64,000 bases of DNA from an uncultured Spirochaetota bacterium (lineage in GTDB: Bacteria; Spirochaetota; Spirochaetia; SZUA-6; Fen-1364), in NCBI GenBank assembly GCA_963820525.1, contig CAWGAA010000003.1, forward strand, positions 32,001 to 96,000, written 5' to 3'. Shown piece by piece: positions 8,797 to 40,052 of this stretch. The notes beneath the pieces are model-generated. The model had not been told where the DNA came from and ran no database searches. It saw only the letters and a list, made by a program, of their open reading frames with translations. The position numbers and the translations under genes are program-made. Positions within the stretch are counted from its first letter, which is position 1; each line of letters begins with the position of its first letter.

Positions 8797-8986
8797 AGCG
8801 ACCTCCAGTAATTATTGTAACCTCTCGAGCCCGCTCAAAGCACAGCTCAGCATCCGCGGAGAAAATGCACCACCTCGAAATTCGTAAATAGAGAATTCAC
8901 CTATCCTTTCCTACCCGATCTGAATTCATTCAGCGCTACGACCGCGCTTGCGGCGCTCCCTATTATCAGAATTTGATATGTCCGTT

Positions 8987-10492: not shown

Positions 10493-10515
10493 AAATCCGC
10501 CCTTTTCTTCGCAAA

Positions 10516-10548
10516 ATGTCCTGCCGGCCCGTAAGGCCGGTAGGACAT
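10516..10548. terminator. Intergenic stem-loop between SBP and ATPase genes
   Basis: ATGTCCTGCCGGCC-CGTAA-GGCCGGTAGGACAT inverted repeat. Confidence 0.6.
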
Positions 10549-10564
10549 GATTCGTAAATCACTC

Positions 10565-11587
10565 TCACTTAGAGAGATACTTCACTGTCAGATCAGCTTT
10601 GATTTGCGTTGTTACCTTTTTTAGATCTTCCTTGTAGGTCCTTACATTGTCCTTATTCAGAACAACGATTCCAGCGTTTATCAAATATGGGGCTCCCTTG
10701 GCCGGCTTATAGCCTTTGGCCATGAGCTCCAATATCGACATCGCCAGATATCCTTGACCATACGGGTTTTGTGCGATTGAGCCATCAAGGTATCCCTTCT
10801 CAATTGCATCGAGAATAATGGGGTCATCGTCTATCCCAACGCACCTCAAGTGAATTCCGTTCTTCTTCTCGAAGTCCGTGAGGAACTTCGCAAGAGCAAC
10901 CGTAGGCACAAAACCTGTTACGATCGCTCCCTTGACGTTCGTCATGTTTGCAGACACAGCAGCTTCGATCTTCTCGATAGCCTCCTGCTCAGATCTGATG
11001 TTCGCAATATCCACAAGGGTTATATCTGGATACTTCTCTTTTACCTCATAAATTGAATCTTTGCGAATCTTCGTGTTAGGGTCTTCGAGGAGTTCAAGTA
11101 CGTTGATGATTGTTCCCCTACCTCCAACTGCCTTGAATACGGTCTCAGCAGCTATCTTGGCGGCATAACCCACATCTGTCATCACTGCGAAGCTGGCTGG
11201 AGTAGGCTGAATGGATGAAGCACCATATTGTACAATGGCACCGCCTTGCTTCACGACTTCAGAATAAAGACCGTTACTCGCACTTGGATCAGAAGGAAAA
11301 GCGGCCATGAACTTATAGCCTTGAGCAACGAGAGCAAGAACACCTGTGTTCATGCTGTCCTGGTTCCAATCCGGGCCTACTTGGATTTTTACTTCGATGT
11401 TCGGATTGTCAGCGGCAAAACCTTCCGCCCCCTTCTTGCACGCTTCACCGAATGGATGTGGAGCCGGGTAATACCAGCCGAGCTTGATTTTCCCTCCTCC
11501 TTTTTCACCAGCGCCTCCTGCCCACAGGCAAAACGTGCCTGCCAGTAGCATTAGAATTGCCGCTGCAAGGATTTTCGAACTTTTCAT
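10565..11587 (-). CDS. Sugar ABC transporter substrate-binding protein (RbsB-like)
   Basis: Signal peptide; VGIDDD...GSIAQNPYGQGY. Confidence 0.9.
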   Translation of the reverse strand: MKSSKILAAAILMLLAGTFCLWAGGAGEKGGGKIKLGWYYPAPHPFGEACKKGAEGFAADNPNIEVKIQVGPDWNQDSMNTGVLALVAQGYKFMAAFPSDPSASNGLYSEVVKQGGAIVQYGASSIQPTPASFAVMTDVGYAAKIAAETVFKAVGGRGTIINVLELLEDPNTKIRKDSIYEVKEKYPDITLVDIANIRSEQEAIEKIEAAVSANMTNVKGAIVTGFVPTVALAKFLTDFEKKNGIHLRCVGIDDDPIILDAIEKGYLDGSIAQNPYGQGYLAMSILELMAKGYKPAKGAPYLINAGIVVLNKDNVRTYKEDLKKVTTQIKADLTVKYLSK

Positions 11588-11661
11588 GACTCGCTCCTCC
11601 TGTGAATTCTTCGATCGCTCCTTAATAATCCATCAACGATGGATCAATACACATTCCTGCC

Positions 11662-12627
11662 TCAGGTCCTTTCTCCCTTTGCGATTCGCATGCGGAAGAA
11701 GTCAACTCCGACAGCGAGTAGAATGATAAAACCAAGGAAAGTGGACTCGAAATAGATGTTGACTCCAAGCATGATAAGTCCATTGCGGATAAGCGCCATC
11801 AACAAGCCAGAGAAAAAGAAACCAAAAGGGGCTACTGTTCCACCTGCCAGTGACGTTCCGCCTAAAATGGAGACGGCAAAAGAAACAATCAACCAATCCT
11901 GTCCAGTTGCGGGTTGAGCAGTCCCCATGCGTGAAATCCACAACATAGCTGATATTGAGGCGAGAACACCTGAAATGATGTGAGCGAGCATAATCATTCT
12001 GTCAGTCTTTATACCCGAGAGTCTTGCGGCCTGTATGTTCCCGCCGGTAGCCAGCAAGTGTCTGCCCACTATTGTAAATCGAAACACGTAGAAACCGATA
12101 CAAAGCATGGCGATCATCAGAATAAGCATTAGAGGGAATCCTCCCACATCCCCTTTGCCTATGATAGTAAAGGAATCCGATATCAGATATGGCTTTCCTT
12201 TGGATATGCCATTCAATAGGCCGAGGTACACAAAACTCGTTGCGAGCGTGACGATAAATGTGTTCAAGCCCATTTTTGTTATAATCAGACCATTCACTGA
12301 ACCTGCTACAAAGCCTACCAGCAGTCCAGCGGCCACTGCTATTAAAGGATGAACATGAAACACTTCCATCATTACGCCCACAATGACCGTTGTGAGGCCT
12401 CCAATTGAGCCGAGGGACAGGTTCATCCCCCCTACCACTAGCACTACTGCCTGTCCCAGGGCGATGAAAACGTTCTGTGACGCTGAGCGAAACACATTGA
12501 AAAGGTTGAACGGTGTGAAAAAGGCCTCGGCAGAGACTGAGAAGACGATGAACAGAACAATCGTCGCAATAATAGTACTGGAATCGTTGCGCTTTAGAAA
12601 TGAACGGAAGATATTCTGCTTCTGCAT
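11662..12627 (-). CDS. Sugar ABC transporter permease (RbsC-like)
   Basis: GGMNLSLGS; ATGGNIQAARLSGI; ILGGTSLAGG. Confidence 0.93.
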   Translation of the reverse strand: MQKQNIFRSFLKRNDSSTIIATIVLFIVFSVSAEAFFTPFNLFNVFRSASQNVFIALGQAVVLVVGGMNLSLGSIGGLTTVIVGVMMEVFHVHPLIAVAAGLLVGFVAGSVNGLIITKMGLNTFIVTLATSFVYLGLLNGISKGKPYLISDSFTIIGKGDVGGFPLMLILMIAMLCIGFYVFRFTIVGRHLLATGGNIQAARLSGIKTDRMIMLAHIISGVLASISAMLWISRMGTAQPATGQDWLIVSFAVSILGGTSLAGGTVAPFGFFFSGLLMALIRNGLIMLGVNIYFESTFLGFIILLAVGVDFFRMRIAKGERT

Positions 12628-12903
12628 CTTTGCTAGCTCTGAAACTTCATTCGATTTGCAGAGGCTAGATACACATTATCGTCGCGCTGTTTCCTGAAAG
12701 CAATATCTAAAAAGCTATACTTTCCCTTTAAAAAATTGACAAATTCACCCTTAAAACTTGAAACTGGGCTATTTTCTCTTTTTGAGAAGAATTTCCAAAG
12801 GGTCTTCCAGATACAAGACAAGGCTGCAGCAATATCCGCAGAACAGAGACCCACTGACGAGTGCGGCTTGAATCTCTCAATCCGCACGACAAGCTGCCCC
12901 GGT

Positions 12904-14634
12904 TCAGGCCCTTATCCTTAGCTGCGATGGATAAAATCCCTTATACTTTTTGAAGAGGGTGTAGAAATAGCTTACATTCGAATACCCGACGCGCTTCGCA
13001 ACCTGGCACGCCTTTAGGGTTTTGAACCGGAGGAGCTCTTCAGCCTTCCGCAGTCGAAGGTCGTTCAGATAAGTCGTGAAAGACATCCCTATTGCGTCGT
13101 GCAACAATCGCCCAAGGTACGTAGAGGAGAGATTGAACTGACAAGAAAGCACCTTCAGTGAGAGCTGCTCAGAGTAGTTCCTATTGACGTACCGGATTAT
13201 TCTATCTATCTTGCTTTCAGCCCGCTTCTCAAACATGATGGTTCTGATCACATCTTTCGAGATCCGACAAAGCCATTCCAGGGTTTTTCTTGGTGTCTTC
13301 TGGTTGAAGAGGTTCTTATAAAGACTCTCGAAGTCACTCAAGAGGGTCTGTTCATCCAAATCATTGATTCTCAGGAGATGAATGAGAATTGAGAGAACTT
13401 CGATTGAGAAGCCGCGGAAGAACTCCGGCGTTATGAGCTCTGACTCAACAAATGTGTTGTAAACATCCTCGAAGAACTTATCGACCTGGGTTTCATCCCC
13501 GTTTAGGATGGAAGCGGTGAGGAGCTGTAAAGAGACGCTGGAAAACTCAGGCTTCTTTAGCAGGAAGTCATCGACATTTTCCCGGGTTATGATGTTCACA
13601 GGAAGATTGTTGACAGGTTCGATAGCTAGGCCGTTGAACCAGTCAGCAGCTATCTTCATTGGCAGGGCGCCATCCGCCTGAGCAGGCTGGAATGTGAGCG
13701 CGTGGAGTTTTCCTTCCTTCACCAGCTGCATTCCCTTCTGCGTGTTGCCTGCGCTAACCATGATGATATCTTCTCTTCCAGCCTTCCTTATCGCCTCGTT
13801 GATCCCGTCCAGCCATGTTCTGTCGTCTGGGCATATGATCCCCTGTAATCCATGCCCGAACCTCCTGATCCAGCCCGTCACCAAGTTCATAGTCCTTTCG
13901 GCGCTAATCTCACCTTCTTTCCCAGCCGGACTCATTGCCAGACACTTCATCTTCGGGGCGAACTTCTTCAACTCCGTAATGACAGAGTATGTTCTGGAGT
14001 AATAGCAGGAGGTCCCCGGTAGGTGGCGGACGATAACATACCCGCCTTCGAATCCCATGCTCTTAGCGAAATGCCGCGCTAGAATTCGAAACGACCCCCA
14101 ATCGTCAGGGCCACACCAAGAGATGATGTACTTATGCGCTTCGACTTTAGGCATCAGGTTGCTTACGATTATCGGGATACGCTGCGCGTGCATTTCCTTT
14201 ACCCAACTCGTGCACGCCTCTATGTTAATGGGCACCAAGATCACGAGGTCTGGCTTCTCCCGGATCGCCTTTGAAACTTGCCTGCTCTGTCCTTCCATGG
14301 TCATATCCGCAGTCAGCGTCAGTAGCCTGACACCATATCTTTCCGCGATCTTGGATAGACCTTCAGCAAAAGCAGGAAAATACGGATGACGCGTGCCTGG
14401 CTGTAGGTAAACAACTTTCTTGCCCTTGGGGCCGTTTCCCGGGGATTCTGGCAGATTGACTTTCTTGATCCCCCAACCTGCATACTCCATGTTGTACCAG
14501 TGCCGTTCATCATCTCTTGGAAATCGCTCGGCTCTCTGTGGGCGGGGCGGGATGTCCTTGCCCTTCGTGTTCCACAATATCAGTAGACGGTCTTCACTAA
14601 AAAGCATACGGAATCTCCAATAAAAGGGCCCCAC
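12904..14634 (-). CDS. AraC-family regulator with N-terminal sugar-binding (periplasmic-binding-protein fold) domain
   Basis: RbsB-like domain (PDLVILVP, GIICPDD) plus C-terminal AraC HTH (VAKRVGYSNVSYFYTLFKKYKGFYPSQLR); start uncertain. Confidence 0.85.
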   Translation of the reverse strand: MGPFYWRFRMLFSEDRLLILWNTKGKDIPPRPQRAERFPRDDERHWYNMEYAGWGIKKVNLPESPGNGPKGKKVVYLQPGTRHPYFPAFAEGLSKIAERYGVRLLTLTADMTMEGQSRQVSKAIREKPDLVILVPINIEACTSWVKEMHAQRIPIIVSNLMPKVEAHKYIISWCGPDDWGSFRILARHFAKSMGFEGGYVIVRHLPGTSCYYSRTYSVITELKKFAPKMKCLAMSPAGKEGEISAERTMNLVTGWIRRFGHGLQGIICPDDRTWLDGINEAIRKAGREDIIMVSAGNTQKGMQLVKEGKLHALTFQPAQADGALPMKIAADWFNGLAIEPVNNLPVNIITRENVDDFLLKKPEFSSVSLQLLTASILNGDETQVDKFFEDVYNTFVESELITPEFFRGFSIEVLSILIHLLRINDLDEQTLLSDFESLYKNLFNQKTPRKTLEWLCRISKDVIRTIMFEKRAESKIDRIIRYVNRNYSEQLSLKVLSCQFNLSSTYLGRLLHDAIGMSFTTYLNDLRLRKAEELLRFKTLKACQVAKRVGYSNVSYFYTLFKKYKGFYPSQLRIRA

Positions 14635-27736: not shown

Positions 27737-28159
27737 TCACTTGCAGCAGCCGCTCTTGGCGCTCCCGCCGGCGTCGGCAGCCGTCACCCCGCTTATGCTG
27801 CCGGCCGACCCGGCCTTGCCTGCTGCTTGGCCGGCCTCTCCGCATCCGCCTGCCCCTGCCTCTCCCGTGCTCTCCCCACCGCATCCGCATGCCGACCCTC
27901 TGCCGGTAAGGGCGCCGTTGATGATCGCCGCGGCGCATCCCACGCCGCTTTTCACTTTTATTGCTCCAAAGCGGCAGTTGGCTTCGCAGGCGCCGCACTC
28001 CATGCACAAGTCACGGTCGGTGAGAAGGGCCTTGCCGCCGTTCACCCTTTCGGAGTCCGGCATGAACACGCCGTGGGGACACACCTCCCAGCAGCGGCCG
28101 CAGCCAGTACACACGGCCGGATCGTAGGTCAGGGTCACCACGTTCGCTATGTATTTCAT
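27737..28159 (-). CDS. hgcB: Mercury methylation ferredoxin HgcB (2x[4Fe-4S]) with extended Gly/Ala/Cys tail
   Basis: CTGCGRCWEVC, CMECGACEANC, GVGCAAAII, terminal GCCK; ATGA overlap with the hgcA stop. Confidence 0.95.
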   Translation of the reverse strand: MKYIANVVTLTYDPAVCTGCGRCWEVCPHGVFMPDSERVNGGKALLTDRDLCMECGACEANCRFGAIKVKSGVGCAAAIINGALTGRGSACGCGGESTGEAGAGGCGEAGQAAGKAGSAGSISGVTAADAGGSAKSGCCK

Positions 28160-29190
28160 AGAAGGCTCCATTCCTTCAGCTTGGAAAGCACAAGGGCGGC
28201 CATGCTCAATACTCCCGCCGCGATATAGAATGGCAGCATGACCTTGATCTCCTTTTTCACTCCGGAGGGGCTGGTGAAGGTGGTCGCACCGGTGAAGTTC
28301 AAAGCCATATAGGCGCTTGCCGCGGGAAAGAAGAGGTAGCAGGCGGCAATCAGGAAAGGGTCCATGCCGGCGGCCAGGCCCAGGCCGTGCAGCAGTGCCG
28401 CGGTTCCCGCCGCTCCCAGGATCCACCCTTTCACGGAGAACAGGCGGAAGGGAATAAAGGGCAGGAGCACGGGGGCAAGGAACGAGCCGCAAAGGATAGA
28501 TGCCAAGCCCAAGGCGAACAGGGGCAGACCATTGGTCCACCCTCGGCTGAAGACTATTCCCGCAGGCGTCACGCCCATGATCACGAACGCGGCCAGGAGA
28601 AACGCGGGGTAGCGCATGAGGGATTGGCTCAGCTCCATGGGGGCCAGGGTGAGCCGCTCTGTAATGCCGAAACGCACGCGCCGCATCTCCGGGCTCGCCT
28701 TCATGCCCGCGCTCATGTACGCGGGGAGGTCCCGCGCGCGCACCGGCCCGAAGCGGACACGGAACCCCGTCCTCTGCTCCACGACGTGGGCGCGGATCCC
28801 GGGGGCGCCGAGCTGGGGAAGGATGATGGTCCTATGGCGCACTACTTCGGCCAGCCGTGTCGCCTCGATCCGCTCCACCAGCTCTTCGGTGCCGAAGGTC
28901 CCCTTTCCAGCGGCGCACCAGACGTTGATGCCCTTCGTGTCCAGAACGAGGATCCAGCCGTCGATGCCGCCCAGCTCGCGGCGAAGGGTATCGAAGCTGA
29001 GCTTGTAGTTGGCGCTCGCGAAAACGGGGGAATCGAAGCCGGGGCTGCCCATGGCGTACAACCCCTGCGGCACGCTGTATCGGTTGCGATAGCTTCCGAT
29101 GCGGCAGCGCACGGCTCCCCACCTGTCTTCAGGCGACCATGCAGGGTTGGTTCTCAGGTACCTGGGTGGTGAAAGTATCGCGCTCGGCAT
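28156..29190 (-). CDS. hgcA: Mercury methylation corrinoid protein HgcA
   Basis: Cap-helix motif TKGINVWCAAGKG; ANYKLSFD; ILPQLGAPG; GPVRARDLP; C-terminal TM domain with NFTGATTFTSPSGVKKE. Confidence 0.97.
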   Translation of the reverse strand: MPSAILSPPRYLRTNPAWSPEDRWGAVRCRIGSYRNRYSVPQGLYAMGSPGFDSPVFASANYKLSFDTLRRELGGIDGWILVLDTKGINVWCAAGKGTFGTEELVERIEATRLAEVVRHRTIILPQLGAPGIRAHVVEQRTGFRVRFGPVRARDLPAYMSAGMKASPEMRRVRFGITERLTLAPMELSQSLMRYPAFLLAAFVIMGVTPAGIVFSRGWTNGLPLFALGLASILCGSFLAPVLLPFIPFRLFSVKGWILGAAGTAALLHGLGLAAGMDPFLIAACYLFFPAASAYMALNFTGATTFTSPSGVKKEIKVMLPFYIAAGVLSMAALVLSKLKEWSLL

Positions 29191-29223: not shown

Positions 29224-30504
29224 TCAATTCGCCAGATGGGGCGTCGGCCGCTCCCCCTTCACCCGCATTGCGGCAAGGTGGCCCAGGAACACAACGGAGC
29301 TTGCAAGGAGGAAACCCGCCGCGGCCGCGAATGTCCGTGAATACCCCTGCCCCCTGATGAGATAGCCTCCCGTCACGGCGGAGAAGGCAAGCCCAAGGGT
29401 GGTTGCCATGTTGGCTACTCCGGACATGAGGGGACGCCAGCGTGAAGTGACGATCTGCAGGATATAGACCTGCATGGCCGCCTCGTTGATCGAGTTGGCC
29501 GCCGTCATTCCCGCCCACCCGAGCGCAGCCGCCGCCCAGTGCGGGAAAATCGAGAGGGGAACGACGCTCGCCATCATGACAAGGAGGCTCACCAGGGAAA
29601 CAGGACCTGTTCCCCTGCGTTTTGCCAGGACGGGCATGAGCGGGGTGAACGCGATTGCGGCAATCGAGGAGACGCTCACCAGGAGCCCGACCAGCGCGGT
29701 GGGAAGCCCGAGCTTCTCGTCGAGGTAGACGTTGTAGAAGTTGAGCACGCCCCCGTAGCCCATCTCGCGGAGGAAGCGTATCAGCGCGATCACGGAAACG
29801 ATCCCGAGGGGAAAGCGCCGCACCGAGGCCCTCTCCCTCTCCTCGCCGCCCGGAGCTTCGCGGAACATCGACAGGGCGACCAGACCCGGGATGAGAATGA
29901 CCACCGCCGTCCAGAGCGAAAAGCCATAGGGAGCGGGAGAGGAGAGCGAGCCGAGGTTCAGAGATGAAAAGAGCTGGGGCAGGAGGCCCCCGATGAGGCT
30001 GCCGCCGAAGGACGTGAGGGATACGATCGTGCCGTTGAAGGCGAAGGCGTAGGTGCTGGATCCTCCCCCGGCCGCGCTCATCAGGGCCGGGTTGGAGTTC
30101 ACCAGGAATATCGCACCGCCGATTGACGAAAGCACCCGGGAGGCGACGAGCGTCTCCATGACGCCTCCGCCGGGCAGGAAGGCAGCCACCGGCGCCATCC
30201 CCCAGCCCGCAATCGCCATGATGCCGCCCGATATCATCGACCGCCGGATGCCGAAGCGCACCCCGATCGCTCCGGCGGGCACGCTTGCCGCCATGTGGAT
30301 GATGTATCCGAGGAAATTGAGATTCCCCATCACCTCGGTTCCATATCCGAGACGGCGCACGAAGAGGTTGGTGAGAAGATACGTGATGCCCCAGTAGGTG
30401 AAACCGAGGAGACCGGCTACGGTGAACAGCAGGTAGACATTGCGGTCGAAACCTCGAATCGCGGAAGCCCAGCTCTGCCGCTGCCCCCTGTCAGGTTCTC
30501 TCAC
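29224..30504 (-). CDS. MFS transporter
   Basis: About 12 hydrophobic segments; motif-A-like GAIGVRFGIRRS; start taken at GTG 30504 (uncertain). Confidence 0.85.
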   Translation of the reverse strand: MREPDRGQRQSWASAIRGFDRNVYLLFTVAGLLGFTYWGITYLLTNLFVRRLGYGTEVMGNLNFLGYIIHMAASVPAGAIGVRFGIRRSMISGGIMAIAGWGMAPVAAFLPGGGVMETLVASRVLSSIGGAIFLVNSNPALMSAAGGGSSTYAFAFNGTIVSLTSFGGSLIGGLLPQLFSSLNLGSLSSPAPYGFSLWTAVVILIPGLVALSMFREAPGGEERERASVRRFPLGIVSVIALIRFLREMGYGGVLNFYNVYLDEKLGLPTALVGLLVSVSSIAAIAFTPLMPVLAKRRGTGPVSLVSLLVMMASVVPLSIFPHWAAAALGWAGMTAANSINEAAMQVYILQIVTSRWRPLMSGVANMATTLGLAFSAVTGGYLIRGQGYSRTFAAAAGFLLASSVVFLGHLAAMRVKGERPTPHLAN

Positions 30505-30628
30505 CTCCGAGTCCCCCGATCCCCAATGTCTTAAAGTATCGCGGAGGCCGGGCAAGAGGTCAACGCGTTGCCCCGGAAATCGCGGCCCTTCCGCATCGCC
30601 CAACGCCGCGCTATGATGGGCCTCGCAG

Positions 30629-31423
30629 ATGGCACGAATCCTCATCGGCACGAGCGGCTACTCTTACGACGATTGGGTGGGGCCCCTCTATCCCCCGGGA
30701 ACTCCCAAGAGCGGCTTCCTCTCCCTCTACGCCCGGGAGTTCCCCATTGTGGAGCTCAACTTCTCCTACTATGCCCAGCCGAGCCCCCGCACTCTCCAGA
30801 GAATGGTGGAGAACACCCCCGAGGGGTTTCTCTTCTCCCTGAAGGCGCATCGAAGCATGACTCATGAGATCTCGGATACCTGGGAGAAGGACGTGGCAGT
30901 CTTCCGCGAGGGGATCCAACCCCTCGTGGAGGCGGGCCGCCTGAGCGCGGTGCTTCTCCAGTTCCCCTACAGCTTCGCCTACACTCCGGAGTCCCGGCAG
31001 AGGCTTGCCGCCCTCTGCGACAGGCTCTCGGGCCTGCCGCTCGCCGTCGAGTTTCGAAAAAGCGAATGGCAGAAAGACGCGGTTCTCGAGGGGCTTCGCC
31101 GGCGGTCGATCGGCCTGGTGAGCGTGGACGAGCCAGACCTTCCCCGCCTGCTCAAACCCACAGCCGAGGTCACCGCGGATCTTTCCTATGTTCGATTTCA
31201 CGGCAGGAACAAGGAAAACTGGTGGGCCGGAGACAACGCCTCCCGCTACGATTACCTCTACGGCAGAGAGGAGCTCATTCCATGGGTGCAGAGGATCAAG
31301 GAGATCCTCCACAGGGCCCGCGTGCTCCTTTTGTTCTTCAACAACCACGCGAGGGGAAGGGCGGTTCAGAACGCCCGGGAGATGCGGGAAATCCTCCGCG
31401 AGGAGGGGCTCCCGGTCGCGTGA
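30629..31423 (+). CDS. DUF72 (YecE-like) protein
   Basis: IGTSGYSYDDW.G.LYP; VELNFSYY; LLQFP; AVEFR; YVRFHGRN; YDYLY; FFNNH. Confidence 0.93.
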   Translation: MARILIGTSGYSYDDWVGPLYPPGTPKSGFLSLYAREFPIVELNFSYYAQPSPRTLQRMVENTPEGFLFSLKAHRSMTHEISDTWEKDVAVFREGIQPLVEAGRLSAVLLQFPYSFAYTPESRQRLAALCDRLSGLPLAVEFRKSEWQKDAVLEGLRRRSIGLVSVDEPDLPRLLKPTAEVTADLSYVRFHGRNKENWWAGDNASRYDYLYGREELIPWVQRIKEILHRARVLLLFFNNHARGRAVQNAREMREILREEGLPVA

Positions 31424-31544: not shown

Positions 31545-32366
31545 TCAATTATGGGGATGAGCCCGCCGACTCTCCAGCCAGACGGCCAGCCTGGCGAAAT
31601 AAGAGTCATTCGGATTCGAATCGACCGCCTTCAAGAGGGCATTCACAACGTATTTAACCTGACCGTGGATGGGGCTAGTCGGGAAGCACTCCACGAGCGA
31701 GCATCCCGTCTTCAACGCGGCATCGGTGTAGTCGGGGTCGAACTTCATGTATCCGGCGAATCTGATCGGGACCTCCTTTTTCAGGAGGGAGACAACCTCG
31801 TCCTTCGTGTCCTGGAAGAACACCGCAGCCTCTTCGAGGTGCCCGGCGTTCATGACGACGACGGCGATCGGCGTGTTTATATCGCGCCCGGCGAGAGTCC
31901 GGGCAGCCTGGTATACCCAACCGGGAGTGGAGGGCCCATTCACCACGAAAAGGACCACCTCGTCGGCGGGTGTGGGAAGTCCGGTCTCAGGGATGGAGGA
32001 TCCGCGAATAAGCACAGTGCCGTATCTCGATCCCTCCGCGAGAAAAAGCTTTTTCTGCCGCGCGTCGGAGAGGCAGGCGCACAGGTTACTCAGCCGGATG
32101 GCGGGGATGGCTGCGGCGGTGTAGTGCTCGAAGTGCTTGTCCAGCCTGTCCCGCGCGGCCGCCCGAGACTGCTGCATGCTGAAAGGGGGCGAATCAGTGA
32201 AAACCGCGAGCGGCGAATTGCCCTTCGACGCAAGCTCCACGAGGAGGTTTTCCAGAGCGAGAGTCGTGAATCGTTCATCCGCGTTTCCCACACAGAACAA
32301 GGCGTGCGTTCCCCGCGGGGACTGCTGCCCCGCCCCCGGTGCGGGCCGCTCTGACGAGCCGCTCAT
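31545..32366 (-). CDS. MinD/FlhG/FleN-like protein lacking a recognisable Walker A motif
   Basis: ADEVVLFVV...VYQAARTL...IAVVVMNA..LEEA...FAGYMKFD...SLVECFPTSP resembles the FlhG C-terminal half. Confidence 0.55.
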   Translation of the reverse strand: MSGSSERPAPGAGQQSPRGTHALFCVGNADERFTTLALENLLVELASKGNSPLAVFTDSPPFSMQQSRAAARDRLDKHFEHYTAAAIPAIRLSNLCACLSDARQKKLFLAEGSRYGTVLIRGSSIPETGLPTPADEVVLFVVNGPSTPGWVYQAARTLAGRDINTPIAVVVMNAGHLEEAAVFFQDTKDEVVSLLKKEVPIRFAGYMKFDPDYTDAALKTGCSLVECFPTSPIHGQVKYVVNALLKAVDSNPNDSYFARLAVWLESRRAHPHN

Positions 32367-34477
32367 GCCGACCCTCCCGAGCGGCGCATCGCCTCGGCGA
32401 GGGCGTCGATGTGCTCCTTATCGAATTTGCGGCCGACCCCATCCCTGATCACCGCGATCGCCGCCTCGTAACTGAGCTTCTCCCGATAAGGCCTGGCGCT
32501 TGTGAGCGCCACGTAGGTCTCCGCCACCCCAATGAGCTTGGCGAATAGGGGGATCTTCGGCCCCTTCAGGCCTTTCGGATATCCCGAGCCGTCGTTGCGT
32601 TCATGGTGGTAGAGGATGCCGTCCTTGAACTCCTCCGGCATCTTCATCCCTTTGAAATATTCCACGCCCTTCTTCGTGTGGCTGCGTATGAACTCGAAAT
32701 CTTCCTCTGTCAGCACCGGTTTGCCGAGGATGCGCACAAGCCTGTCGGGGTCCAGAAGCAGGTAGCCCGCATCGTGGGCCAGGGCGGATTTGTAGAGAAG
32801 CTCGGCGTCCGCGGTGGACAAGCCGAGCCCCCGGGCCATGCCCCGGGCGACTCTCGCCGTGACCGTCGAGCGTTCCCGGTCCTTAAGGATTTTTCTCAGA
32901 TTCTCCGTGATCTCCATGAGCTTCGGAAGACCGAGCGGGGAATCGTCGGCCTCCTGCGTGGCCCCCTGGCCAAGCATGGGGAGGAGAGCCCTTCCCTCGC
33001 GGGGCCTACCCGCCAGCGTCTCGCGCACAAGACTCTCGGCCTTCTCTCTGAGGTAATCGTCATGCTCGGTCAGGAAAGGAAAAAGCACGGGCAGGATGGC
33101 GCGGGGGTCGCTGCCGTCCTCCTCCATGATTCTGTTCTCGACCACCTTGAGGATCTCTATCCTGAGGTCTTTCTCCAGCTCGCCGATGTACTCGCGAACT
33201 GTTTCCCACTTCAGGCTCCCCTGCTTCATCTGCTCGTGCATCCGCCTGATTCTCTCCGCCCGCATGAGATCACGGTACATCCCGGCGTCCCCCCCGGAAG
33301 GCGCCGTTTCGGCTGGTTTTTCAGTCTCCGGGTAAAATTCGAGCAGCATCGATTCGCCCACGGCTGCACGGCCCCGCTCCTGTTTTTCGGCCTCGCCGCC
33401 GAATGACATCGCCGGATACGCCAGGGCGGTCTCCCTCGAGCCCAGCACGCGCCTGCGGCGGAGCTGGGCGCGCACGATCAGTAGAATAAACAAAATCACG
33501 AGAAGGGTGACTATTCCCAAGCCGCCGAAGAGGAAGAGATTACGCGCCGAGAGCGTCTGGAACTGAAGCTGGTAGAGCTTATTCTGCTCCGCGAGTTGAT
33601 CGGCGAGATACTTCGTGCCCTCCTGGCTCGCGGCGCCCTGCATGTCTATGTTTTTCTGGTAGAGCTGGAGAAGCTCGGTGAGCGCTTTTGCGTCCCTGCT
33701 GGCCGTCTGGTCGTTGTTTTGGACCCGCTGGTTCAGCTGTTCGATCATCGTTCTATACCGTTCCATGTCCATCTTCAGCGCCTGACTCTCGCCCTGGGCC
33801 GCGAGCGCGGACGCTCGAATGGCTTCCAGTTGCCGCTCGGCTTCCTCTTTCTGCCGCTCCAGCTCGGTCTTGAGGGCGGCGCTCTCCTGGGTGGCGGTGG
33901 ACGTCGACGCGCGGAGGGCCGCCAATTCCTGCTCGGTTTTCTCCAGTTTATCAAGGGCCTCCTTGTAGACAGCGGAGCCCTCCACCAGCGCGGGCGTGGC
34001 GCCACCGACTGTCGTTCCCCCCGTGGCCGTTCCTCCGGCAGCCGTGCTCCCCGCCGTCTCCGTCCCGCCGCCCGTCGCTCCCGCGCCTTGCGTCGTGGGA
34101 GCTTTCTGCGCCGCTTCATCCGCCTCGTTCTTCAAGGCATTGATATTCATCTCGGCTTTCATTTGCCAGAAATACTTTGAAGCGATCTGGTTTGTCGGCG
34201 AGAGCTTCACCGCGTTCTTGAAACACTCGTAGGCGTTCTTGAAATTACGCCGACTGTACTCTTTCGCTCCGATGTCCGCGTACGCGTCGGCCAATGATCT
34301 TTTCGCTGTCGTGTTGGTCGGGCCGCTCGACAGGGCAACACCGAGGGTCTTCAGGGCGTCCGCCGCGTTTCCCGCCGCGTACTCGGACTGCGCCTGCTTG
34401 ATGAGATCGTCCAGACCGGCTGCGGAAAGACCGACGACGGCCAGGAAGAGTAGGAGCGAAACGGCCGATTTCTTCAT
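32363..34477 (-). CDS. Signal peptide-TPR-coiled coil-TM-HD-GYP domain protein
   Basis: MKKSAVSLLLFL signal; TPR-like helices; long coiled coil; TM LFLFGGLGIVTLLVILFILLIV; AHDAG and HHERNDGSGYP. Confidence 0.88.
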   Translation of the reverse strand: MKKSAVSLLLFLAVVGLSAAGLDDLIKQAQSEYAAGNAADALKTLGVALSSGPTNTTAKRSLADAYADIGAKEYSRRNFKNAYECFKNAVKLSPTNQIASKYFWQMKAEMNINALKNEADEAAQKAPTTQGAGATGGGTETAGSTAAGGTATGGTTVGGATPALVEGSAVYKEALDKLEKTEQELAALRASTSTATQESAALKTELERQKEEAERQLEAIRASALAAQGESQALKMDMERYRTMIEQLNQRVQNNDQTASRDAKALTELLQLYQKNIDMQGAASQEGTKYLADQLAEQNKLYQLQFQTLSARNLFLFGGLGIVTLLVILFILLIVRAQLRRRRVLGSRETALAYPAMSFGGEAEKQERGRAAVGESMLLEFYPETEKPAETAPSGGDAGMYRDLMRAERIRRMHEQMKQGSLKWETVREYIGELEKDLRIEILKVVENRIMEEDGSDPRAILPVLFPFLTEHDDYLREKAESLVRETLAGRPREGRALLPMLGQGATQEADDSPLGLPKLMEITENLRKILKDRERSTVTARVARGMARGLGLSTADAELLYKSALAHDAGYLLLDPDRLVRILGKPVLTEEDFEFIRSHTKKGVEYFKGMKMPEEFKDGILYHHERNDGSGYPKGLKGPKIPLFAKLIGVAETYVALTSARPYREKLSYEAAIAVIRDGVGRKFDKEHIDALAEAMRRSGGSA

Positions 34478-34497
34478 GGCTACATTTCTCCTTCTGC

Positions 34498-37400
34498 CTA
34501 CGGCCTGTACGTGACCGCGACGTGGCCGTAGCGGCCGGCGGGCATGCTCGCGAGCGTGGTCCATGTGCCGGGAGTCGCGGGAGGGGGGAGCGAGGTCAGG
34601 TTGCAGAGGTTGCTCAGATCGAACGAGTACACATTGTTCACGCCGCTGGCGGAGGCCAACAAAGTTGAAGTGCCGCCGAAAACGTACATGATCGATCCTG
34701 AAAGGGCGGCGGAGCTGAACCCATACGATTGGGGAAAGACGCCGGTGGTGCCGCCGTTCGCCCAGACGGCCGTGCCGGTGAATGGATAGTACAGGAACTG
34801 AAATACATTGGTCGGCGTGCTTGTTGCGCCCATTCCATTGACGATGAAGCACTGGGGGGTTCCCGAAAGGGCGGTGAATCCCCCGACGATCGCCATGATC
34901 GTGGGACCCGAGGTCGGCGTATATATCACGCCGGATATACCGGTTCGGGCAAGGGCGGTATATGGCGTAACGCCTATATTCAAGACGACTTCCTGGCCCG
35001 CCGTGAGGCCTCCCGTGGTGGGGGGACTTGAGACGGCAAGTCCGTCATGCGTGGAGGCCGGCGTGGCTGCGGCCGTGCGCCCGCCGAAATTATAGATGAC
35101 GTCGCCGTACGCGAGTGCGAAGCGTTCTGACCCGGCTGCGCCGAATGCGACCTTCCCGGTATACCAACTGCCGGCTGCGCCGGAAACGGGCGTGTACTCG
35201 TATGTGGTAGTCGTGGCCGCGCCCGCCCATGCCACGCCGGCTGCGCCCGTGGTTCCGCCCAATACGTAGATTCTATTGTTCACTACAACCGCGTGGATGT
35301 TCGCCTTTGCGACGGGCATCTGGGCCGGCACGGGGCTGGTCTGCCATGAATTGGCTGCTATATTATAGATCTGCACCGAGCTGAGAACGGCGCCGCTTGA
35401 ATTGAATCCGCCGATCACGTAGATGTTCCCTCCCAATGAGCACGCCGCGGCGAAACTCACGGGAGTGGGCAAGGTAGTGACGGCTTGATACCAGGTATCG
35501 ATTACCGGATCGTACAGATCGACATTGGCGACAACCGAACCGATGAGATTCGTCGAGAGCCCGCCGATCATCCATATCCCGCGCTGTTTCTTCGCCAAGG
35601 TGGGTTCCGCCTCGGTCGGGGTGAACGAGTTTTCGGCGCTCACCACGAAGGGCAGGGTCGCGCTGTAATTCTTCACCCTGTAATAGTAGACTTGGTTGCT
35701 CGTCAGCCCCGAAAGGGTGACCGAGTGCGAGGTGCCGGCGGTCTGCGACTGGATCGTAGAATACGCGTAGGTGCCTGACCCGGCGTGGGACACTGTGTCG
35801 TACTCCACGAGGTGGGTCGTGGCTACGTTCGTCGTCCAGGTGATGTCGGCCGTGGTCGATGATGTGGGTGTCGCCGTGAGAAGCGTCACAGCTATCGCGA
35901 TGGTTGTGGTGAAGGTGTACCCGCTGTCCACCTTCGCCGGTCCCGTGCCCACGAAATTCCTGAGTTGGTAGGAATATTGGGTCGACGGGCTGAGCCCGGA
36001 CAGGGTGATCGTGTGCGAAGTGGTAGGCGTGGTGGATTGCAGCGTGGCGTACGTGTAGGTACCGGGGATGGTGCCGTACTCGACAAGGTGGGTGGCGGCG
36101 ACGTTCGTCGTCCATGCGATGTTCGCAGTCGTCGCCGCCGGCGTCGCGGTAGGCCCCGCGGAGACGGTGATGGCGGGCGTCGTGAAGGAGCTCTCGGTGC
36201 TCACGGAGTCGGGCATGGATGGATTGAAATTCCATACCCGGTAGTAGTACTTGGTTGATTCCGAGAGTCCGGAGAGGGTAACGGAGTGGGATGTCGCGGC
36301 CGTCTGTGAAACCGCGGTCGCGTACGCGTAGGTTCCGGTCGCGGTGCCGTATTCCACGAAGTGGGTGGTGGCCACGTCCGTGGTCCAGCTGATCGTGGCC
36401 GCGCTGGGCGACGTGGGTGTCGCCGTGAGGAGCGTCACCCCTATTTGGACAACGGCCGTCGTGGTGAACGAATAGGGGCCGTCCACCTTCGCCGGTCCCG
36501 CGCCCACGAAGTTCCTGAGCCTGTAAAAATATTGGGTCGACGGACTGAGCCCGGACAGGGTGATCGTATGCGAAGTCGCGGCGGCCCCCGACGAGTACGC
36601 GGAATATTCATAGGTACCGGAGACGGTACCGAAATCCACCACGGCCGTCGTGGCGACGTTCGTCGTCCATGAGATGTCCGCCGTCGTTTCCGACGGCGTT
36701 GCGGTAGGCCCGCCGGTGACGGTGATCGTGTTCGTCGTGAAGGATCTCTCGGTGCTCACGGAGTCGGGCATGGACGGGTTGAAATTCCTCACTCTGTAGT
36801 AATACACGGTGGATTCCGCGAGCCCGGAGAGGGTCACGGAGTGGGACGTATTGGCCGTCGGCGAAAGTACGGTCGCGTACGCGTAGGTGCCGGACACGGT
36901 GCCGTATTCCACGAAGTGGGTGGTGGCCACGTCCGTGGTCCAGGTGATATCGGCCGTGGTCGGCGATGTGGGTGTCGCCGTGAGGAGCGTCACCTGGATC
37001 ACCGGCGTAGCCGTGGTTGCGAACGAGCCCTCCGCACTCAACGTGGCGGGCATCGTCGTGTGGAAATTCCGAACCCGATAGTAGTACGTGGTCGATGCAG
37101 CAAGCCCCGTCAGGGGGACGGAGTGGGAGGTGTCGGCGGTCAGTGACTGGATCGTTGAAAGGTCGAGGCTGCCGGAAGTCGTGCCGTATTCCACGAGGTG
37201 CGTTGTCGGCACGTCCGTGATCCAGGCGACATTGGCCGTCGTTTGCGATGAGGTCGCCGCGAGCCCCGTCACTTGGATTCCCGGGAATGCAATCGTGGTG
37301 AACGTGTTCTCCGCGCTCTTCGAAGCCGACATCTCGGCGTCGATGTTGGTCACCCGATAGTAGTACTGGGTAGATGCCGTGAGTCCCGACAGGGTGACGG

Positions 37401-37662
37401 AATGTGAGGTGTCGGGGGTCTGCGACTGGGCCGTCGCATTGGAATACGCTCCCGAGACCGTTCCATATTCCACGAAATGGGTGGTCGGTTTCTCCGTGGT
37501 CCACGCGATAGTCGCACCCGTTTGCGAGGCCGTCACCGAAAGCCCCGTAATGACGACCGACTTCGTGCCCGGCGGAGTCTCAAGCAGCGACCCGTTGCAT
37601 GAGGCGAGCGCGACCGTCAACGCCATATACAGGAAAGGCTTCATGAATGATTTCCCTTTCAC
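34498..37662 (-). CDS. Surface lipoprotein with 7 Fn3-like repeats and a C-terminal Kelch propeller
   Basis: Lipobox LASC; seven W-T/I-T...VEYG...HSVTLSGL...YYYRV units; Kelch motifs IYVIGG, IYVLGG, MYVFGG. Confidence 0.88.
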   Translation of the reverse strand: MKGKSFMKPFLYMALTVALASCNGSLLETPPGTKSVVITGLSVTASQTGATIAWTTEKPTTHFVEYGTVSGAYSNATAQSQTPDTSHSVTLSGLTASTQYYYRVTNIDAEMSASKSAENTFTTIAFPGIQVTGLAATSSQTTANVAWITDVPTTHLVEYGTTSGSLDLSTIQSLTADTSHSVPLTGLAASTTYYYRVRNFHTTMPATLSAEGSFATTATPVIQVTLLTATPTSPTTADITWTTDVATTHFVEYGTVSGTYAYATVLSPTANTSHSVTLSGLAESTVYYYRVRNFNPSMPDSVSTERSFTTNTITVTGGPTATPSETTADISWTTNVATTAVVDFGTVSGTYEYSAYSSGAAATSHTITLSGLSPSTQYFYRLRNFVGAGPAKVDGPYSFTTTAVVQIGVTLLTATPTSPSAATISWTTDVATTHFVEYGTATGTYAYATAVSQTAATSHSVTLSGLSESTKYYYRVWNFNPSMPDSVSTESSFTTPAITVSAGPTATPAATTANIAWTTNVAATHLVEYGTIPGTYTYATLQSTTPTTSHTITLSGLSPSTQYSYQLRNFVGTGPAKVDSGYTFTTTIAIAVTLLTATPTSSTTADITWTTNVATTHLVEYDTVSHAGSGTYAYSTIQSQTAGTSHSVTLSGLTSNQVYYYRVKNYSATLPFVVSAENSFTPTEAEPTLAKKQRGIWMIGGLSTNLIGSVVANVDLYDPVIDTWYQAVTTLPTPVSFAAACSLGGNIYVIGGFNSSGAVLSSVQIYNIAANSWQTSPVPAQMPVAKANIHAVVVNNRIYVLGGTTGAAGVAWAGAATTTTYEYTPVSGAAGSWYTGKVAFGAAGSERFALAYGDVIYNFGGRTAAATPASTHDGLAVSSPPTTGGLTAGQEVVLNIGVTPYTALARTGISGVIYTPTSGPTIMAIVGGFTALSGTPQCFIVNGMGATSTPTNVFQFLYYPFTGTAVWANGGTTGVFPQSYGFSSAALSGSIMYVFGGTSTLLASASGVNNVYSFDLSNLCNLTSLPPPATPGTWTTLASMPAGRYGHVAVTYRP

Positions 37663-37675
37663 GGCTCCCTCCGTT

Positions 37676-38560
37676 TCAGAAGCTGTAGGCCGCGCCGATC
37701 GAAACCGACGGCAGGTGAAGCAAAGTACTTGTCTGTTGCACCGCGAGCCATCTTCCGCCGAGTCGGATCAGCAGGCGCGAGCTCAGATAGAAATCCAATC
37801 CCAGGTTCGCGCTGTAGACGAGATCGATCTCACCCCTCGAGGAGCCCGCCGCCTGGTCGCTCACCCCAATATACGCGATACCCGCGCCAAGGCCGAACCA
37901 GGGAACGAGATTCTTGATGACGGGTAGGGATGAAGACCAAAAACCGAGGTAACGGTAGATCGGGCAGGCGGTGGCCGTGGTGACGCTGTAGGAGAGGTTC
38001 CGGCCGGCGAGATAGGGCACAAAGAACTGCGAAATATCGAGACCCGCGAACAGCCCTCTGACGATTGGGAGGTTGACCTCCGCGAATGCGGAAGCCAAGA
38101 AGCCCGGACCGAACGACGCGCCAAGCGGACCAACGGTCAGATCGTACCCTCCGGTAAGCCCTACGTGGATGGGGAACCCGTAGTAGAGATTTCGCTGCGC
38201 CGGGTCCTGAATTCTGCGAATGCTGTCCGACGGAATGGTGAGCTCGCCGAAATCGAGATCGACGAAAAGCCCTATATCGGGGTCGAAATTCTTCACCTTG
38301 CCGCGTATGACGGAGCCGTCATTAAGGATGATCTCCACGGGCTGGACGCTGAGGGCGCTGTAGTCGGTCTCCATTTTAATCAACGCAGTGGAGGTCAATC
38401 GAATGGTTTTTCCGAACACATCGAGCGTGACGAACCCCCCCTCCGCGGAAGCCACCTGCCCCAGGAATATCGTGCCGTCTTCCGTGCGTATCACGTCGCT
38501 GAATGCAGGAGCGGTGATTCTGCAAACGATGATCAGGAGAAAGAGAACGCGGTTTCTCAT
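37676..38560 (-). CDS. Outer-membrane beta-barrel protein with duplicated small N-terminal domain
   Basis: Signal peptide; two D/N-G-x-x-x-x-G-x-V units; amphipathic strands PWFGLGAG, NLGLDFY; C-terminal YSF. Confidence 0.7.
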   Translation of the reverse strand: MRNRVLFLLIIVCRITAPAFSDVIRTEDGTIFLGQVASAEGGFVTLDVFGKTIRLTSTALIKMETDYSALSVQPVEIILNDGSVIRGKVKNFDPDIGLFVDLDFGELTIPSDSIRRIQDPAQRNLYYGFPIHVGLTGGYDLTVGPLGASFGPGFLASAFAEVNLPIVRGLFAGLDISQFFVPYLAGRNLSYSVTTATACPIYRYLGFWSSSLPVIKNLVPWFGLGAGIAYIGVSDQAAGSSRGEIDLVYSANLGLDFYLSSRLLIRLGGRWLAVQQTSTLLHLPSVSIGAAYSF

Positions 38561-39380: not shown

Positions 39381-40052
39381 TCAGTCTTCTTCCGGCTCTT
39401 CCAGGTCGCTCGCTTCGATGGCAACGCTCTGCTCGTCCCCGGTCTTCGGGTCAATCGTGAGGTCGAACGTGTACTGGTCCATATCCTCGTCGGCGGACAT
39501 GACGTTGTACTTCACCTTCGCGTCCCCGATGGGTACCAGGACGGTGTACGACTCTCCCGCGCTCAGGATCGTGTCCTCGTCCAGAAGATCCACCCCCCAC
39601 GCGTCGGAATCCGAGGGGGACATGAAGAGGTAGTACATGTCGTAGTCCGTCTTGTTTTCGATCTGGAGCTTCACGAACGTGAAATCCTTGGGGGAGCTTT
39701 TCAGGTTTTTCCTGGTGAAGGTGATGATGCCTTCCTTGCCGTCGGTGAGCGTGAAATCGTACAGCTCGAAGACGTTCCCCGCCTCGTCCGTCGCCATGAT
39801 GTCGAACTTGAACGAGGAGCCGGGATAGTGGACGACGTATCCGATGGATTTCCCGTCGCCGAGATGGTACTCCGCCCCCACGATATCGGGCCCCCACTCC
39901 TCGCTGTCCGACGGGGAAAGGAATATGGTCTGGATGTTCTTTCCCGTCGCGTTCTTGAACTCGATGCGGTTGAGCTCTTCCGGATCGAAAGCGAACAGGA
40001 TCGCGAAACCTGCCAATAAGAAAGAAAGCGAAAGCACGTTCCTCTTCGACAT
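39381..40052 (-). CDS. Secreted acidic protein with two tandem homologous domains
   Basis: Signal peptide; NATG..IFLSPSDSEEWGPDIV and NKTD..LFMSPSDSDAWGVDLL. Confidence 0.75.
   Translation of the reverse strand: MSKRNVLSLSFLLAGFAILFAFDPEELNRIEFKNATGKNIQTIFLSPSDSEEWGPDIVGAEYHLGDGKSIGYVVHYPGSSFKFDIMATDEAGNVFELYDFTLTDGKEGIITFTRKNLKSSPKDFTFVKLQIENKTDYDMYYLFMSPSDSDAWGVDLLDEDTILSAGESYTVLVPIGDAKVKYNVMSADEDMDQYTFDLTIDPKTGDEQSVAIEASDLEEPEED

Follow-up and report, generated by a model that had tools for sequence, protein, structure and literature searches.

Four co-directional open reading frames (ORFs) on the minus strand, here called A, B, C and D, fill positions 31545-38560 of the window, a stretch of 64,000 nucleotides from contig CAWGAA010000003.1 of an uncultured Spirochaetota bacterium. 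They encode, in that order, a predicted eight-stranded outer-membrane barrel, a lipoprotein with Fn3-like domains and a Kelch propeller, a membrane-spanning HD-GYP protein, and a protein of the MinD/FlhG fold that has lost its P-loop. The best reading of this cluster is an undescribed trans-envelope module for cyclic di-GMP (c-di-GMP). In the fuller form that we favour, though with somewhat less than even confidence, the four genes make up one self-contained, envelope-spanning second-messenger module, old within Spirochaetota, in which sensing runs from the outside in and c-di-GMP hydrolysis or binding is the output. HD-GYP proteins are abundant in spirochaetes, and few have known inputs or partners. 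The cluster offers a testable four-component unit conserved in at least 13 families, in which the HD-GYP protein C gains three candidate partners in three compartments.

Conservation of the cluster across Spirochaetota

Conservation was assessed in 401 genomes drawn evenly from the phylum and in 40 relatives of the window genome; sampled genomes carry G-codes (G000 being the window's own), loci L-codes and families f-codes. A, B, C and D lie adjacent to one another in 16 of the 401 genomes and in three of the 40 relatives (G035, G025, G032), which together represent 13 family codes. Ten of these clusters come from G000, G357, G096, G199, G069, G148, G350, G054, G214 and G243, and a further six, with a shorter form of C, from G248, G356, G204, G232, G371 and G428. 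The order of the window is also found in the metagenome-assembled genome 'Spirochaetes bacterium RBG_16_67_19' (L008) and in the metagenome contigs L012 and L015. Gene order varies: it is C-D-A-B in G035, and A-B is divergent from C-D in G025 and G032. Across clusters, C and D usually overlap by 4 bp. Incomplete forms include G228, with A-B-C and no detected D, and G084, with B-B-C-D and no A; the clusters of G110 and G138 are interrupted by contig ends. Compared by tblastx and Pfam, the flanks differ from locus to locus and have no conserved gene in common; among the genes there are an adenylate cyclase, aconitase, PheRS and an ammonium transporter with PII. Recurrence in so many distant genomes amid unrelated flanks puts the arrangement far outside chance expectation. 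An earlier note on this DNA, which proposed a surface-sensing c-di-GMP system of these four genes, had named missing co-occurrence elsewhere, together with missing interfaces, as what would refute it; on the first point the genes do stay together across at least 13 families, which speaks against refutation.

The linkage is also evident gene by gene. Strong full-length matches to the A profile (E<=1e-40) number 14 in the 401 genomes; 13 of them have both the gene of a Kelch lipoprotein and one of the C type as neighbours, and the last sits at a contig end. A is accordingly an outer-membrane barrel family almost confined to the module context. A profile of Cmid, a helical domain of C, finds a single copy in 24 of the 401 genomes, 21 of them with E<=1e-20, and each of these 21 has a MinD-type gene as the next one downstream of C; in G062 this gene was missed by the hidden Markov model and was read from the DNA as SSGKGGAGKT. 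Weak Cmid matches in G065, G190 and G099 (E 7e-7 to 9e-4) have no D neighbour and were set outside the family. As a query, D matches four of the 41 genomes made up of the window genome and its 40 relatives, and none of the 24 of the same family; all three relatives holding D have a C homologue directly beside it. Further, C stands immediately upstream of D in 11 of 13 loci, the other two being contigs of 1.1-1.6 kb without room for it. Left out of this synteny check were L016 and L017, on contigs of 1.0-1.6 kb, and L009, L010 and L022, whose short, partial matches (E 2e-4 to 4e-4) are probably spurious.

In the short-C variant (f62; L088, L089, L092, L093), a further HD_5/HD protein of 430 aa is encoded directly after D, and another of about 400 aa some 2 kb upstream of A; the coordinates of these extra proteins in L089 are 3178-4470 and 11122-12357.

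The four gene products

The genes of the window are packed exactly as the earlier note had stated: 13 bp separate A from B (37663-37675) and 20 bp separate B from C (34478-34497), and C and D share the 4 bp ATGA (32363-32366). Shine-Dalgarno-like GGAGG/AAGGAG boxes precede B and C. A longer upstream ORF of C would overlap B, and the length of C is counted from the ATG of MKKSAVS. The domain assignments proposed in that note hold for all four products, that of a FleN-like protein for D in fold and ancestry only. Its distribution of the products over four compartments agrees with the signal peptide, lipobox, barrel fold and transmembrane (TM) segment found here, and remains a placement predicted from these features. 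Coordinates are collected in Table 1.

The A protein has an N-terminal hydrophobic segment (residues 5-24) and ends in YSF, the terminal F294 being invariant in homologues. Its AlphaFold2 (AF2) model, built with 15 homologues, reaches a predicted local distance difference test score (pLDDT) of 84.4 and contains eight long strands over residues 131-293. Foldseek matches this barrel to NspA at TMt 0.82, and residues 124-294 give structural Z scores of 19.2 with NspA, 17.5 with OmpA, 17.1 with OmpW and 16.8 with the OprF N-terminal domain (VIA). The antiparallel eight-stranded barrel, the signal peptide and the C-terminal aromatic residue are together those of an OmpA/OmpX/NspA-type protein. In OmpA-type eight-stranded barrels both chain ends lie on the periplasmic side, and the small domains of A are on this ground predicted to be periplasmic. 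Residues 20-121 resemble the Hfq/Sm fold in the model (Z about 8), which may be a mere common small-barrel arrangement. A has no Pfam match, and its membership of NCBIfam LA_3334 was rejected at 19.8 bits against a cut-off of 200, so that it is a distant relative at most.

B is a Kelch-propeller lipoprotein: a lipobox Cys follows the signal peptide and is kept in nearly all of 25 orthologues, and the Kelch matches exceed the Pfam cut-offs (Kelch_KLHDC2_KLHL20_DRC7, 109.8 bits versus 50; Kelch_1, 64.7 versus 20.1). The Fn3-like array is detected as seven Pur_ac_phosph_N/fn3 stretches (Pur_ac_phosph_N 219 bits), and Tandem Repeats Finder detects no DNA-level repeat in it. The Fn3 count differs among orthologues, from none in forms of 359-407 aa to several in forms of 664-1234 aa, and B is duplicated or triplicated at several loci. 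Many orthologues share a motif right after the lipidated Cys, C-[NGQ]-[GN]-x-L-L-(x)-x-P, whatever their Fn3 number (loci L005-L077); judged by its conservation, the motif is a candidate docking or sorting tether.

The closest solved structures to the B propeller are KLHL/Keap1 Kelch domains (E down to 9e-29), which are protein-binding propellers. They speak against solute sensing of the LuxP-LuxQ or ChvE-VirA kind, in which a periplasmic, sugar-binding or mutarotase-like Kelch protein B would dock on the head of C once loaded with its ligand and A would serve only as an outer-membrane anchor. Such a role has some footing in weak NCBIfam matches to NanM/YjhT and in a Pfam NANM match (E 6.6e-8). 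However, the scores lie far below the cut-offs (NCBIfam 26.7 versus 416, 22 versus 256.35 and 19.3 versus 243.2; Pfam NANM 32.2 versus 45), and B was rejected as a NanM/YjhT mutarotase. A stalk of seven Fn3 domains would also be hard to fit in the periplasm, and we consider solute sensing very unlikely.

C opens with an N-terminal hydrophobic segment (residues 1-27) and a TPR-like head (TPR, tetratricopeptide repeat). The stalk that follows is helix-prone over residues 186-316, with only 3 Pro+Gly in 131 residues and 66% E/K/Q/R/A/L, and leads into the TM segment. In Cmid, residues G420, W424, L438, E447, D473 and Y475 are invariant. One orthologue (L015, 7395-9974) has about 150 extra ELEKQR-type repeat residues in the stalk, in an ORF of 859 aa as compared with 704 aa; stalk length is therefore not fixed. 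Stalk length in C and Fn3 number in B both vary, and the two do not track each other among orthologues.

The HD-GYP domain of C scores 100.6 bits against an HD_5 cut-off of 27.2 and matches the sequences of the solved phosphodiesterases 4mcw (PmGH), 4r8z (PA4781) and 5z7c (V-cGAP3) at E about 1e-18. With these and RpfG it shares HD_5 and the core motifs, keeping H568-D569, H600, H624-H625-E626, G632-Y633-P634 and R662; among 14 orthologues H568 is present in at least 90%, and D569, H600, H624, H625, E626, G632, Y633 and P634 are invariant. It departs from them at the positions of PmGH H189, K225, D305 and D308, which correspond to R536, Y573, E653 and V656 in C, so that the full residue set of PmGH is not present. 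The correspondence was drawn from a HMMER alignment to 4mcw (chain numbering +6 relative to the paper), from the spacing of the HD motif and from orthologue alignments. The equivalent of K225 is Tyr or Phe in every family member examined. The other changes mark the sub-clade of the window (window, L008, L015, L082, L053, L054, L056), with Arg, Lys or Ala for H189, Glu for D305 and Val, Thr or Ala for D308; other C clades retain H189 and D305. The mutations H189A, K225A and D308A abolish and D305A lowers PmGH activity, and RpfG is active despite Phe at the H189 position (PMC4159591). The c-di-GMP turnover proposed in the earlier note thus has the preserved HD, HHE and GYP motifs on its side and four changed PmGH-relevant residues against it, and is uncertain. 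By these residues C falls between the active HD-GYPs and DvhD, and it may hydrolyse c-di-GMP or only bind it.

DvhD is a point of reference for the main rival explanation. Devoid of HD and HH motifs, its HD-GYP-like domain binds c-di-GMP, leaves it uncleaved and signals from the inside out (PMC13090378). In an inside-out receptor of this LapD/DvhD-like type, C would bind c-di-GMP without cleavage and its head would capture or release A/B, controlling the display or activity of an adhesin-like B. The four substitutions of the window clade are what a binding-only domain might show, D too appears to be without catalysis, its Walker A being lost, and the stalk of B varies in length (0 to 7 or more Fn3 units) as is often the case in adhesins. 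Against it, C keeps HD, H600, HHE and GYP near-invariant throughout the family, where DvhD has SQ for HD and MN for HH (PMC13090378), and the example of RpfG and the residues retained in other C clades apply here as well. In addition, the module encodes no protease or cleavable adhesin. The Lap (LapD/LapG/LapA) and Dvh (DvhD/DvhG/DvhA) systems share with the module a membrane-spanning c-di-GMP-binding protein, a periplasmic protein-binding domain and neighbouring envelope or surface genes, yet the module lacks a BTLCP protease, a type I secretion system and a giant adhesin, has an extra MinD-like partner, and carries a TPR head on a stalk in place of a LapD/MoxY or dCache domain. On balance, we regard the inside-out receptor as unlikely, though it deserves more weight than the other rivals.

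D has zero Pfam or NCBIfam matches. Its AF2 model (pLDDT 87.7) has the MinD-type SIMIBI fold, with FlhG (4rz2) and FleN (5j1j, 7ejw, 8p53, 8pb9) as best Foldseek matches, followed by MinD, ParA, NifH and BcsQ; the top matches have E 1.6e-10 to 2.3e-9, probability 1.00 and TM-scores of 0.61-0.70, and those to FlhG and FleN include FleN-FleQ complexes. Similarly, protein-language-model features in the ESM Atlas put D with MinD/ParA clusters at 0.95. At the Walker A site D reads VGNADERFTT instead of SGKGGxGKTT, both lysines and the glycines being lost. The pattern GN.D.R is invariant in an alignment of 18 D sequences, and no Walker A lysine motif occurs among 42 D-family representatives. Close homologues number 35 in a collection of 5.8 billion proteins and 48 representative clusters among 1.84 billion. 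The D-family profile finds only 3odp among the PDB sequences (E 0.38) and weakly detects canonical GKGGxGKT ATPases (E about 1e-10 to 1e-12). The amphipathic membrane-targeting helix of FlhG, FleN and MinD has a possible counterpart in a C-terminal helix modelled at residues 256-269; the motif YF.R.A is kept in close homologues, and the Kyte-Doolittle scale gives a modest hydrophobic moment of about 1.0.

The genes 3' of C come in three Walker A grades. The f26/f39/f57 and short-C clades have the intact grade (GGKGGVGKTFF...DADINLSN), whose members pass the Pfam AAA_31/ParA/CbiA cut-offs; the partly eroded grade reads GSKRDVGKNT, GARNNIGMST, GSREGIGNSF and similar; the fully eroded grade is that of the window. 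In a maximum-likelihood tree, 26 C proteins form three clades, each with 100/99 support, which coincide with the grades, a match that amounts to at most two changes and, statistically, shows nothing more than common ancestry. D can be traced to a MinD/FlhG-class ATPase from which it has degenerated, since its sister clades carry an intact or half-eroded Walker A, and it is always partnered with a C-type HD-GYP protein. This coupling, with its series from intact to lost ATP sites, gives a way of asking what role an ATPase plays for a cyclic-dinucleotide enzyme.

Two further observations concern the relatives of D. In f26, an eroded-Walker-A C-D pair with B upstream (L082, G110) is nested in the window clade of the C tree, and eight other f26 genomes (L067-L075) have the intact type without A-B, in a single copy per genome; this mix suggests horizontal replacement or the sorting of old paralogues. 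The closest intact relative by D profile is a stand-alone MinD-like ATPase present in all 38 sampled f32 genomes (L030-L052). Five of these ATPases were read as SSGKGGxGKT...D.DINCSN; their genes adjoin neither an HD-GYP gene nor flhF, and at 23 of the loci there is no C gene within 1.5 kb.

D was rejected as the cell's FlhG: its Walker A is gone, it belongs to no curated family, it follows an HD-GYP gene, and the genome has a real flhG elsewhere. The canonical flhF-flhG-x-fliA locus lies on another contig, C1, at about 597,000-600,800 (G000, L062), and consists of flhF (SRP54-type GTPase), flhG (GKGGVGKT; AAA_31/ParA/CbiA), an ORF of 264 aa that matches no family, and a gene of the sigma-70 family; BLASTP of D against this FlhG gives no match (E 3.5). 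D shares the fold of FlhG, FleN, MinD and BcsQ, its sister-clade orthologues have their canonical GGKGGxGKT, and, as is the case for BcsQ and FleN, its partner is a protein related to c-di-GMP. It differs from FlhG, FleN and MinD in its eroded Walker A, in matching no curated family, in lying outside any flagellar, division or partition locus, and in having an HD-GYP membrane protein as partner, a pairing not found in the literature searched.

The FleN-like label in the earlier note therefore stands for fold and ancestry and fails for the Walker A lysines and for the locus. These findings also bear on the proposal that the module adjusts flagellar number or motility when the Kelch tip of B touches a surface. 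c-di-GMP commonly controls motility, and FlhG and FleN, including FleN-FleQ complexes, are the best structural matches of D. However, FlhG and FleN need the Walker A lysines, which D no longer has, the cell's own FlhG is a separate protein, no HD-GYP link of this kind with FlhG or FleN was found in the literature searched, and none of the 21 flanking genes scanned at module loci is flagellar or chemotactic. The motility control put forward in the earlier note is not borne out by these loci, and we hold it to be the least probable of the explanations considered.

Table 1. Features of the four-gene cluster (window coordinates)
Feature	Position	Strand	Description
Gene A	37676-38560	-	294 aa ORF
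A layout	37676-38560	-	signal peptide; Sm/SH3-like beta domains at ~23-64 and ~74-118; 8-stranded barrel at ~124-294
Gene B	34498-37662	-	1054 aa; GTG start, GGAGG 6 nt upstream
B layout	34498-37662	-	lipobox LASC at residues 19-22 (Cys22); seven Fn3-like domains; C-terminal Kelch beta-propeller
B Fn3-like array	35743-37548	-	residues ~39-640
B Kelch propeller	34501-35745	-	residues 640-1054; common to all orthologues
Gene C	32363-34477	-	704 aa; start taken at ATG of MKKSAVS
C layout	32363-34477	-	signal/anchor, TPR-like head, Gly/Thr-rich linker, helical stalk, TM, Cmid, HD-GYP
C residues 1-135	34073-34477	-	signal/anchor segment and TPR-like head with NFKNAY...ASKYFWQMK...LKNE
C TM segment	33455-33553	-	residues ~309-341, followed by RAQLRRRR (positive-inside)
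C Cmid	32993-33289	-	residues 397-495; family-specific helical domain of ~100 aa, no Pfam family
C HD-GYP	32414-32875	-	residues 535-688
Gene D	31545-32366	-	273 aa; start overlaps C stop in ATGA
D eroded Walker A site	32262-32288	-	residues 27-35, GNADERFTT, in place of GKGGxGK[ST]T

A possible trans-envelope mechanism

As one outside-in module, the four products might work as follows. C would be a bitopic inner-membrane protein with its TPR-like head on a helical stalk of ~130-180 residues, which at roughly 20 nm would be long enough to reach the outer membrane. There the head would meet the two periplasmic domains of A and/or the propeller or N-terminal tether of B, and in the cytoplasm Cmid and the HD-GYP domain would pair with D. 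Without ATP binding, D would act as a fixed adaptor or regulatory subunit and not as an ATP-driven switch. Stalk and TM helix would transmit the occupancy or geometry of the contact between A/B and the TPR head to the HD-GYP domain, where c-di-GMP would be hydrolysed or merely bound. What the contact reports could be a ligand or partner held by the propeller of B, or else the spacing between outer and inner membrane. The outside-in direction is taken as the default because it is the usual logic of proteins with an N-terminal periplasmic domain and a C-terminal HD-GYP, and a binding-only role would be nearly as likely as turnover because the catalytic residues are eroded in the window clade.

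Contact at the head is suggested by the C proteins themselves. Those encoded beside A-B share the head signature N[FY]K[NT]AY..F..A[VM]K..P.[NH]..AS.[YW][FW]W.MK...[VI]..L[KT][ND][EK], or diverged forms of it. A TPR-like head of another kind (DDVATALYKEGLKKYIL...) is found in the clade that has no A-B. By sequence this fits a head that serves as the docking site for A/B, with a single clade split behind it. At the cytoplasmic end, a predicted complex of C(395-704) with D scored 0.00 in both runs, which weighs neither for nor against binding.

Several points weigh against a single outside-in module. In eight genomes (G160, G153, G062, G047, G100, G146, G076, G174), C and D have neither A nor B inside a distance of about 8 kb, and one truncated contig also has C-D without A-B; a genome-wide search for A found none in G160, G153 and G100 and only a weak partial match in G047. 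The pair C-D can therefore work on its own, with A-B as a dispensable addition. The ties between the presence of A-B, the type of head and the state of Walker A go back to one or two evolutionary events and do not count as independent replicates, and any association of A-B presence with Walker A erosion conflicts with A-B-C'-D clusters in which Walker A is intact. The parts of C were read from sequence profiles and composition. Of the periplasmic TPR on a long stalk described in the earlier note, the stalk is supported by the helix-prone stretch and the TM segment, and the TPR signal is weak, below cut-off (TPR_1 E=0.0012; a designed TPR in PDB E=9e-4). The physical contacts within the module are predicted from gene linkage and topology, the lipoprotein B might face either the surface or the periplasm, and with the loss of PmGH-critical residues c-di-GMP turnover by C may be wrong here. 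The surface sensing at the Kelch tip and the relay through barrel A put forward in the earlier note are conjectural proposals.

The solitary C-D pairs would also suit two separate linked pairs, in which C-D is an inner-membrane signalling unit and A-B has a function of its own, such as adhesion or uptake, with no direct communication between them. The divergent A-B of G025 and G032 and the C-D-A-B order of G035 could be taken in the same way. Nevertheless, strong A homologues adjoin both B and a C-type gene wherever the contig allows it to be seen, the linkage survives rearrangement of gene order and full turnover of the flanks, and clusters that include A-B have another head signature in C than those that do not. 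Two independent pairs are accordingly rather improbable.

A more specific form of the trans-envelope module is a periplasm-spanning 'ruler', in which the head of C would reach A/B only at narrow places of the periplasm, such as those clear of the periplasmic flagellar ribbon or those where a surface presses on the envelope. The local shape of the envelope would then set the local c-di-GMP state, and D would fix the complex at defined cell positions. This idea is quite doubtful; if true, it would be a spirochaete-specific mechanosensing or geometry-sensing device built on a catalytically eroded enzyme pair.

The components of the module are known domain types, and its logic resembles that of Lap/Dvh and Rcs. 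In the Rcs (RcsF-OmpA/OmpC-IgaA) and NlpE-OmpA-Cpx systems, an outer-membrane lipoprotein and a barrel report to an inner-membrane protein in a manner that depends on periplasmic width. The module follows the same logic, but there is no homology of components, and its output is a cyclic-dinucleotide domain in place of a phosphorelay. Threading of B through A would be pure speculation, since an eight-stranded barrel is narrow. In Vibrio vulnificus, the TPR domains of RcbA/RcbB gate and localise a c-di-GMP enzyme and the two form a conserved gene pair (PMC12282931). Unlike the module, RcbAB is cytoplasmic, has a GGDEF output, and includes no envelope components or MinD-like partner.

The TPR-stalk architecture does not appear in the main text of the Galperin HD-GYP census preprint, which has 0 occurrences of 'TPR', and its supplementary tables could list it. 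Likewise, in the full texts covered by a literature search, no HD-GYP/MinD-like pair, TPR-stalk HD-GYP architecture or four-gene cluster of this kind is described, in agreement with the earlier note, which did not recognise it as a described system. If its contacts are confirmed, the module would be a new type beside Lap and Dvh on the short list of envelope-spanning second-messenger systems and would be relevant to the way in which spirochaetes perceive their envelope or their surroundings.

Genomic surroundings

The downstream border of the block is formed by a convergent DUF72 gene (30629-31423), and upstream of A a gap of 820 bp precedes an unrelated secreted-protein ORF. A scan for promoters and terminators gave nothing above the shuffled expectation. 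Sequencing runs containing the stretch are DNA only, with no RNA run listed, and derive from wetland, freshwater-sediment, sediment and soil metagenomes, four of them with at least half of its words. Judged by these labels, the data fit an environmental organism, and the best run may be the window's own assembly sample.

The ORF upstream of A (39381-40052, minus strand, the same strand as A) encodes 223 aa; its product has a signal peptide and contains two internal repeats in which the motif (F/M)SPSDS(E/D)xWG(P/V)D recurs. No Pfam family matches this ORF, and it is not kept beside the module in related loci. On the other side of the block, positions 27737-29190 (minus strand) encode two proteins, one of the ferredoxin 4Fe-4S type and one matching the C-terminal region of CdhD (CO dehydrogenase/acetyl-CoA synthase, delta subunit), after which comes a major facilitator superfamily (MFS) transporter at 29224-30651. 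Further away, positions 8001-14000 have a GC content of 0.47-0.48 as compared with about 0.57-0.65 in the remaining window, and this segment may be a foreign island.

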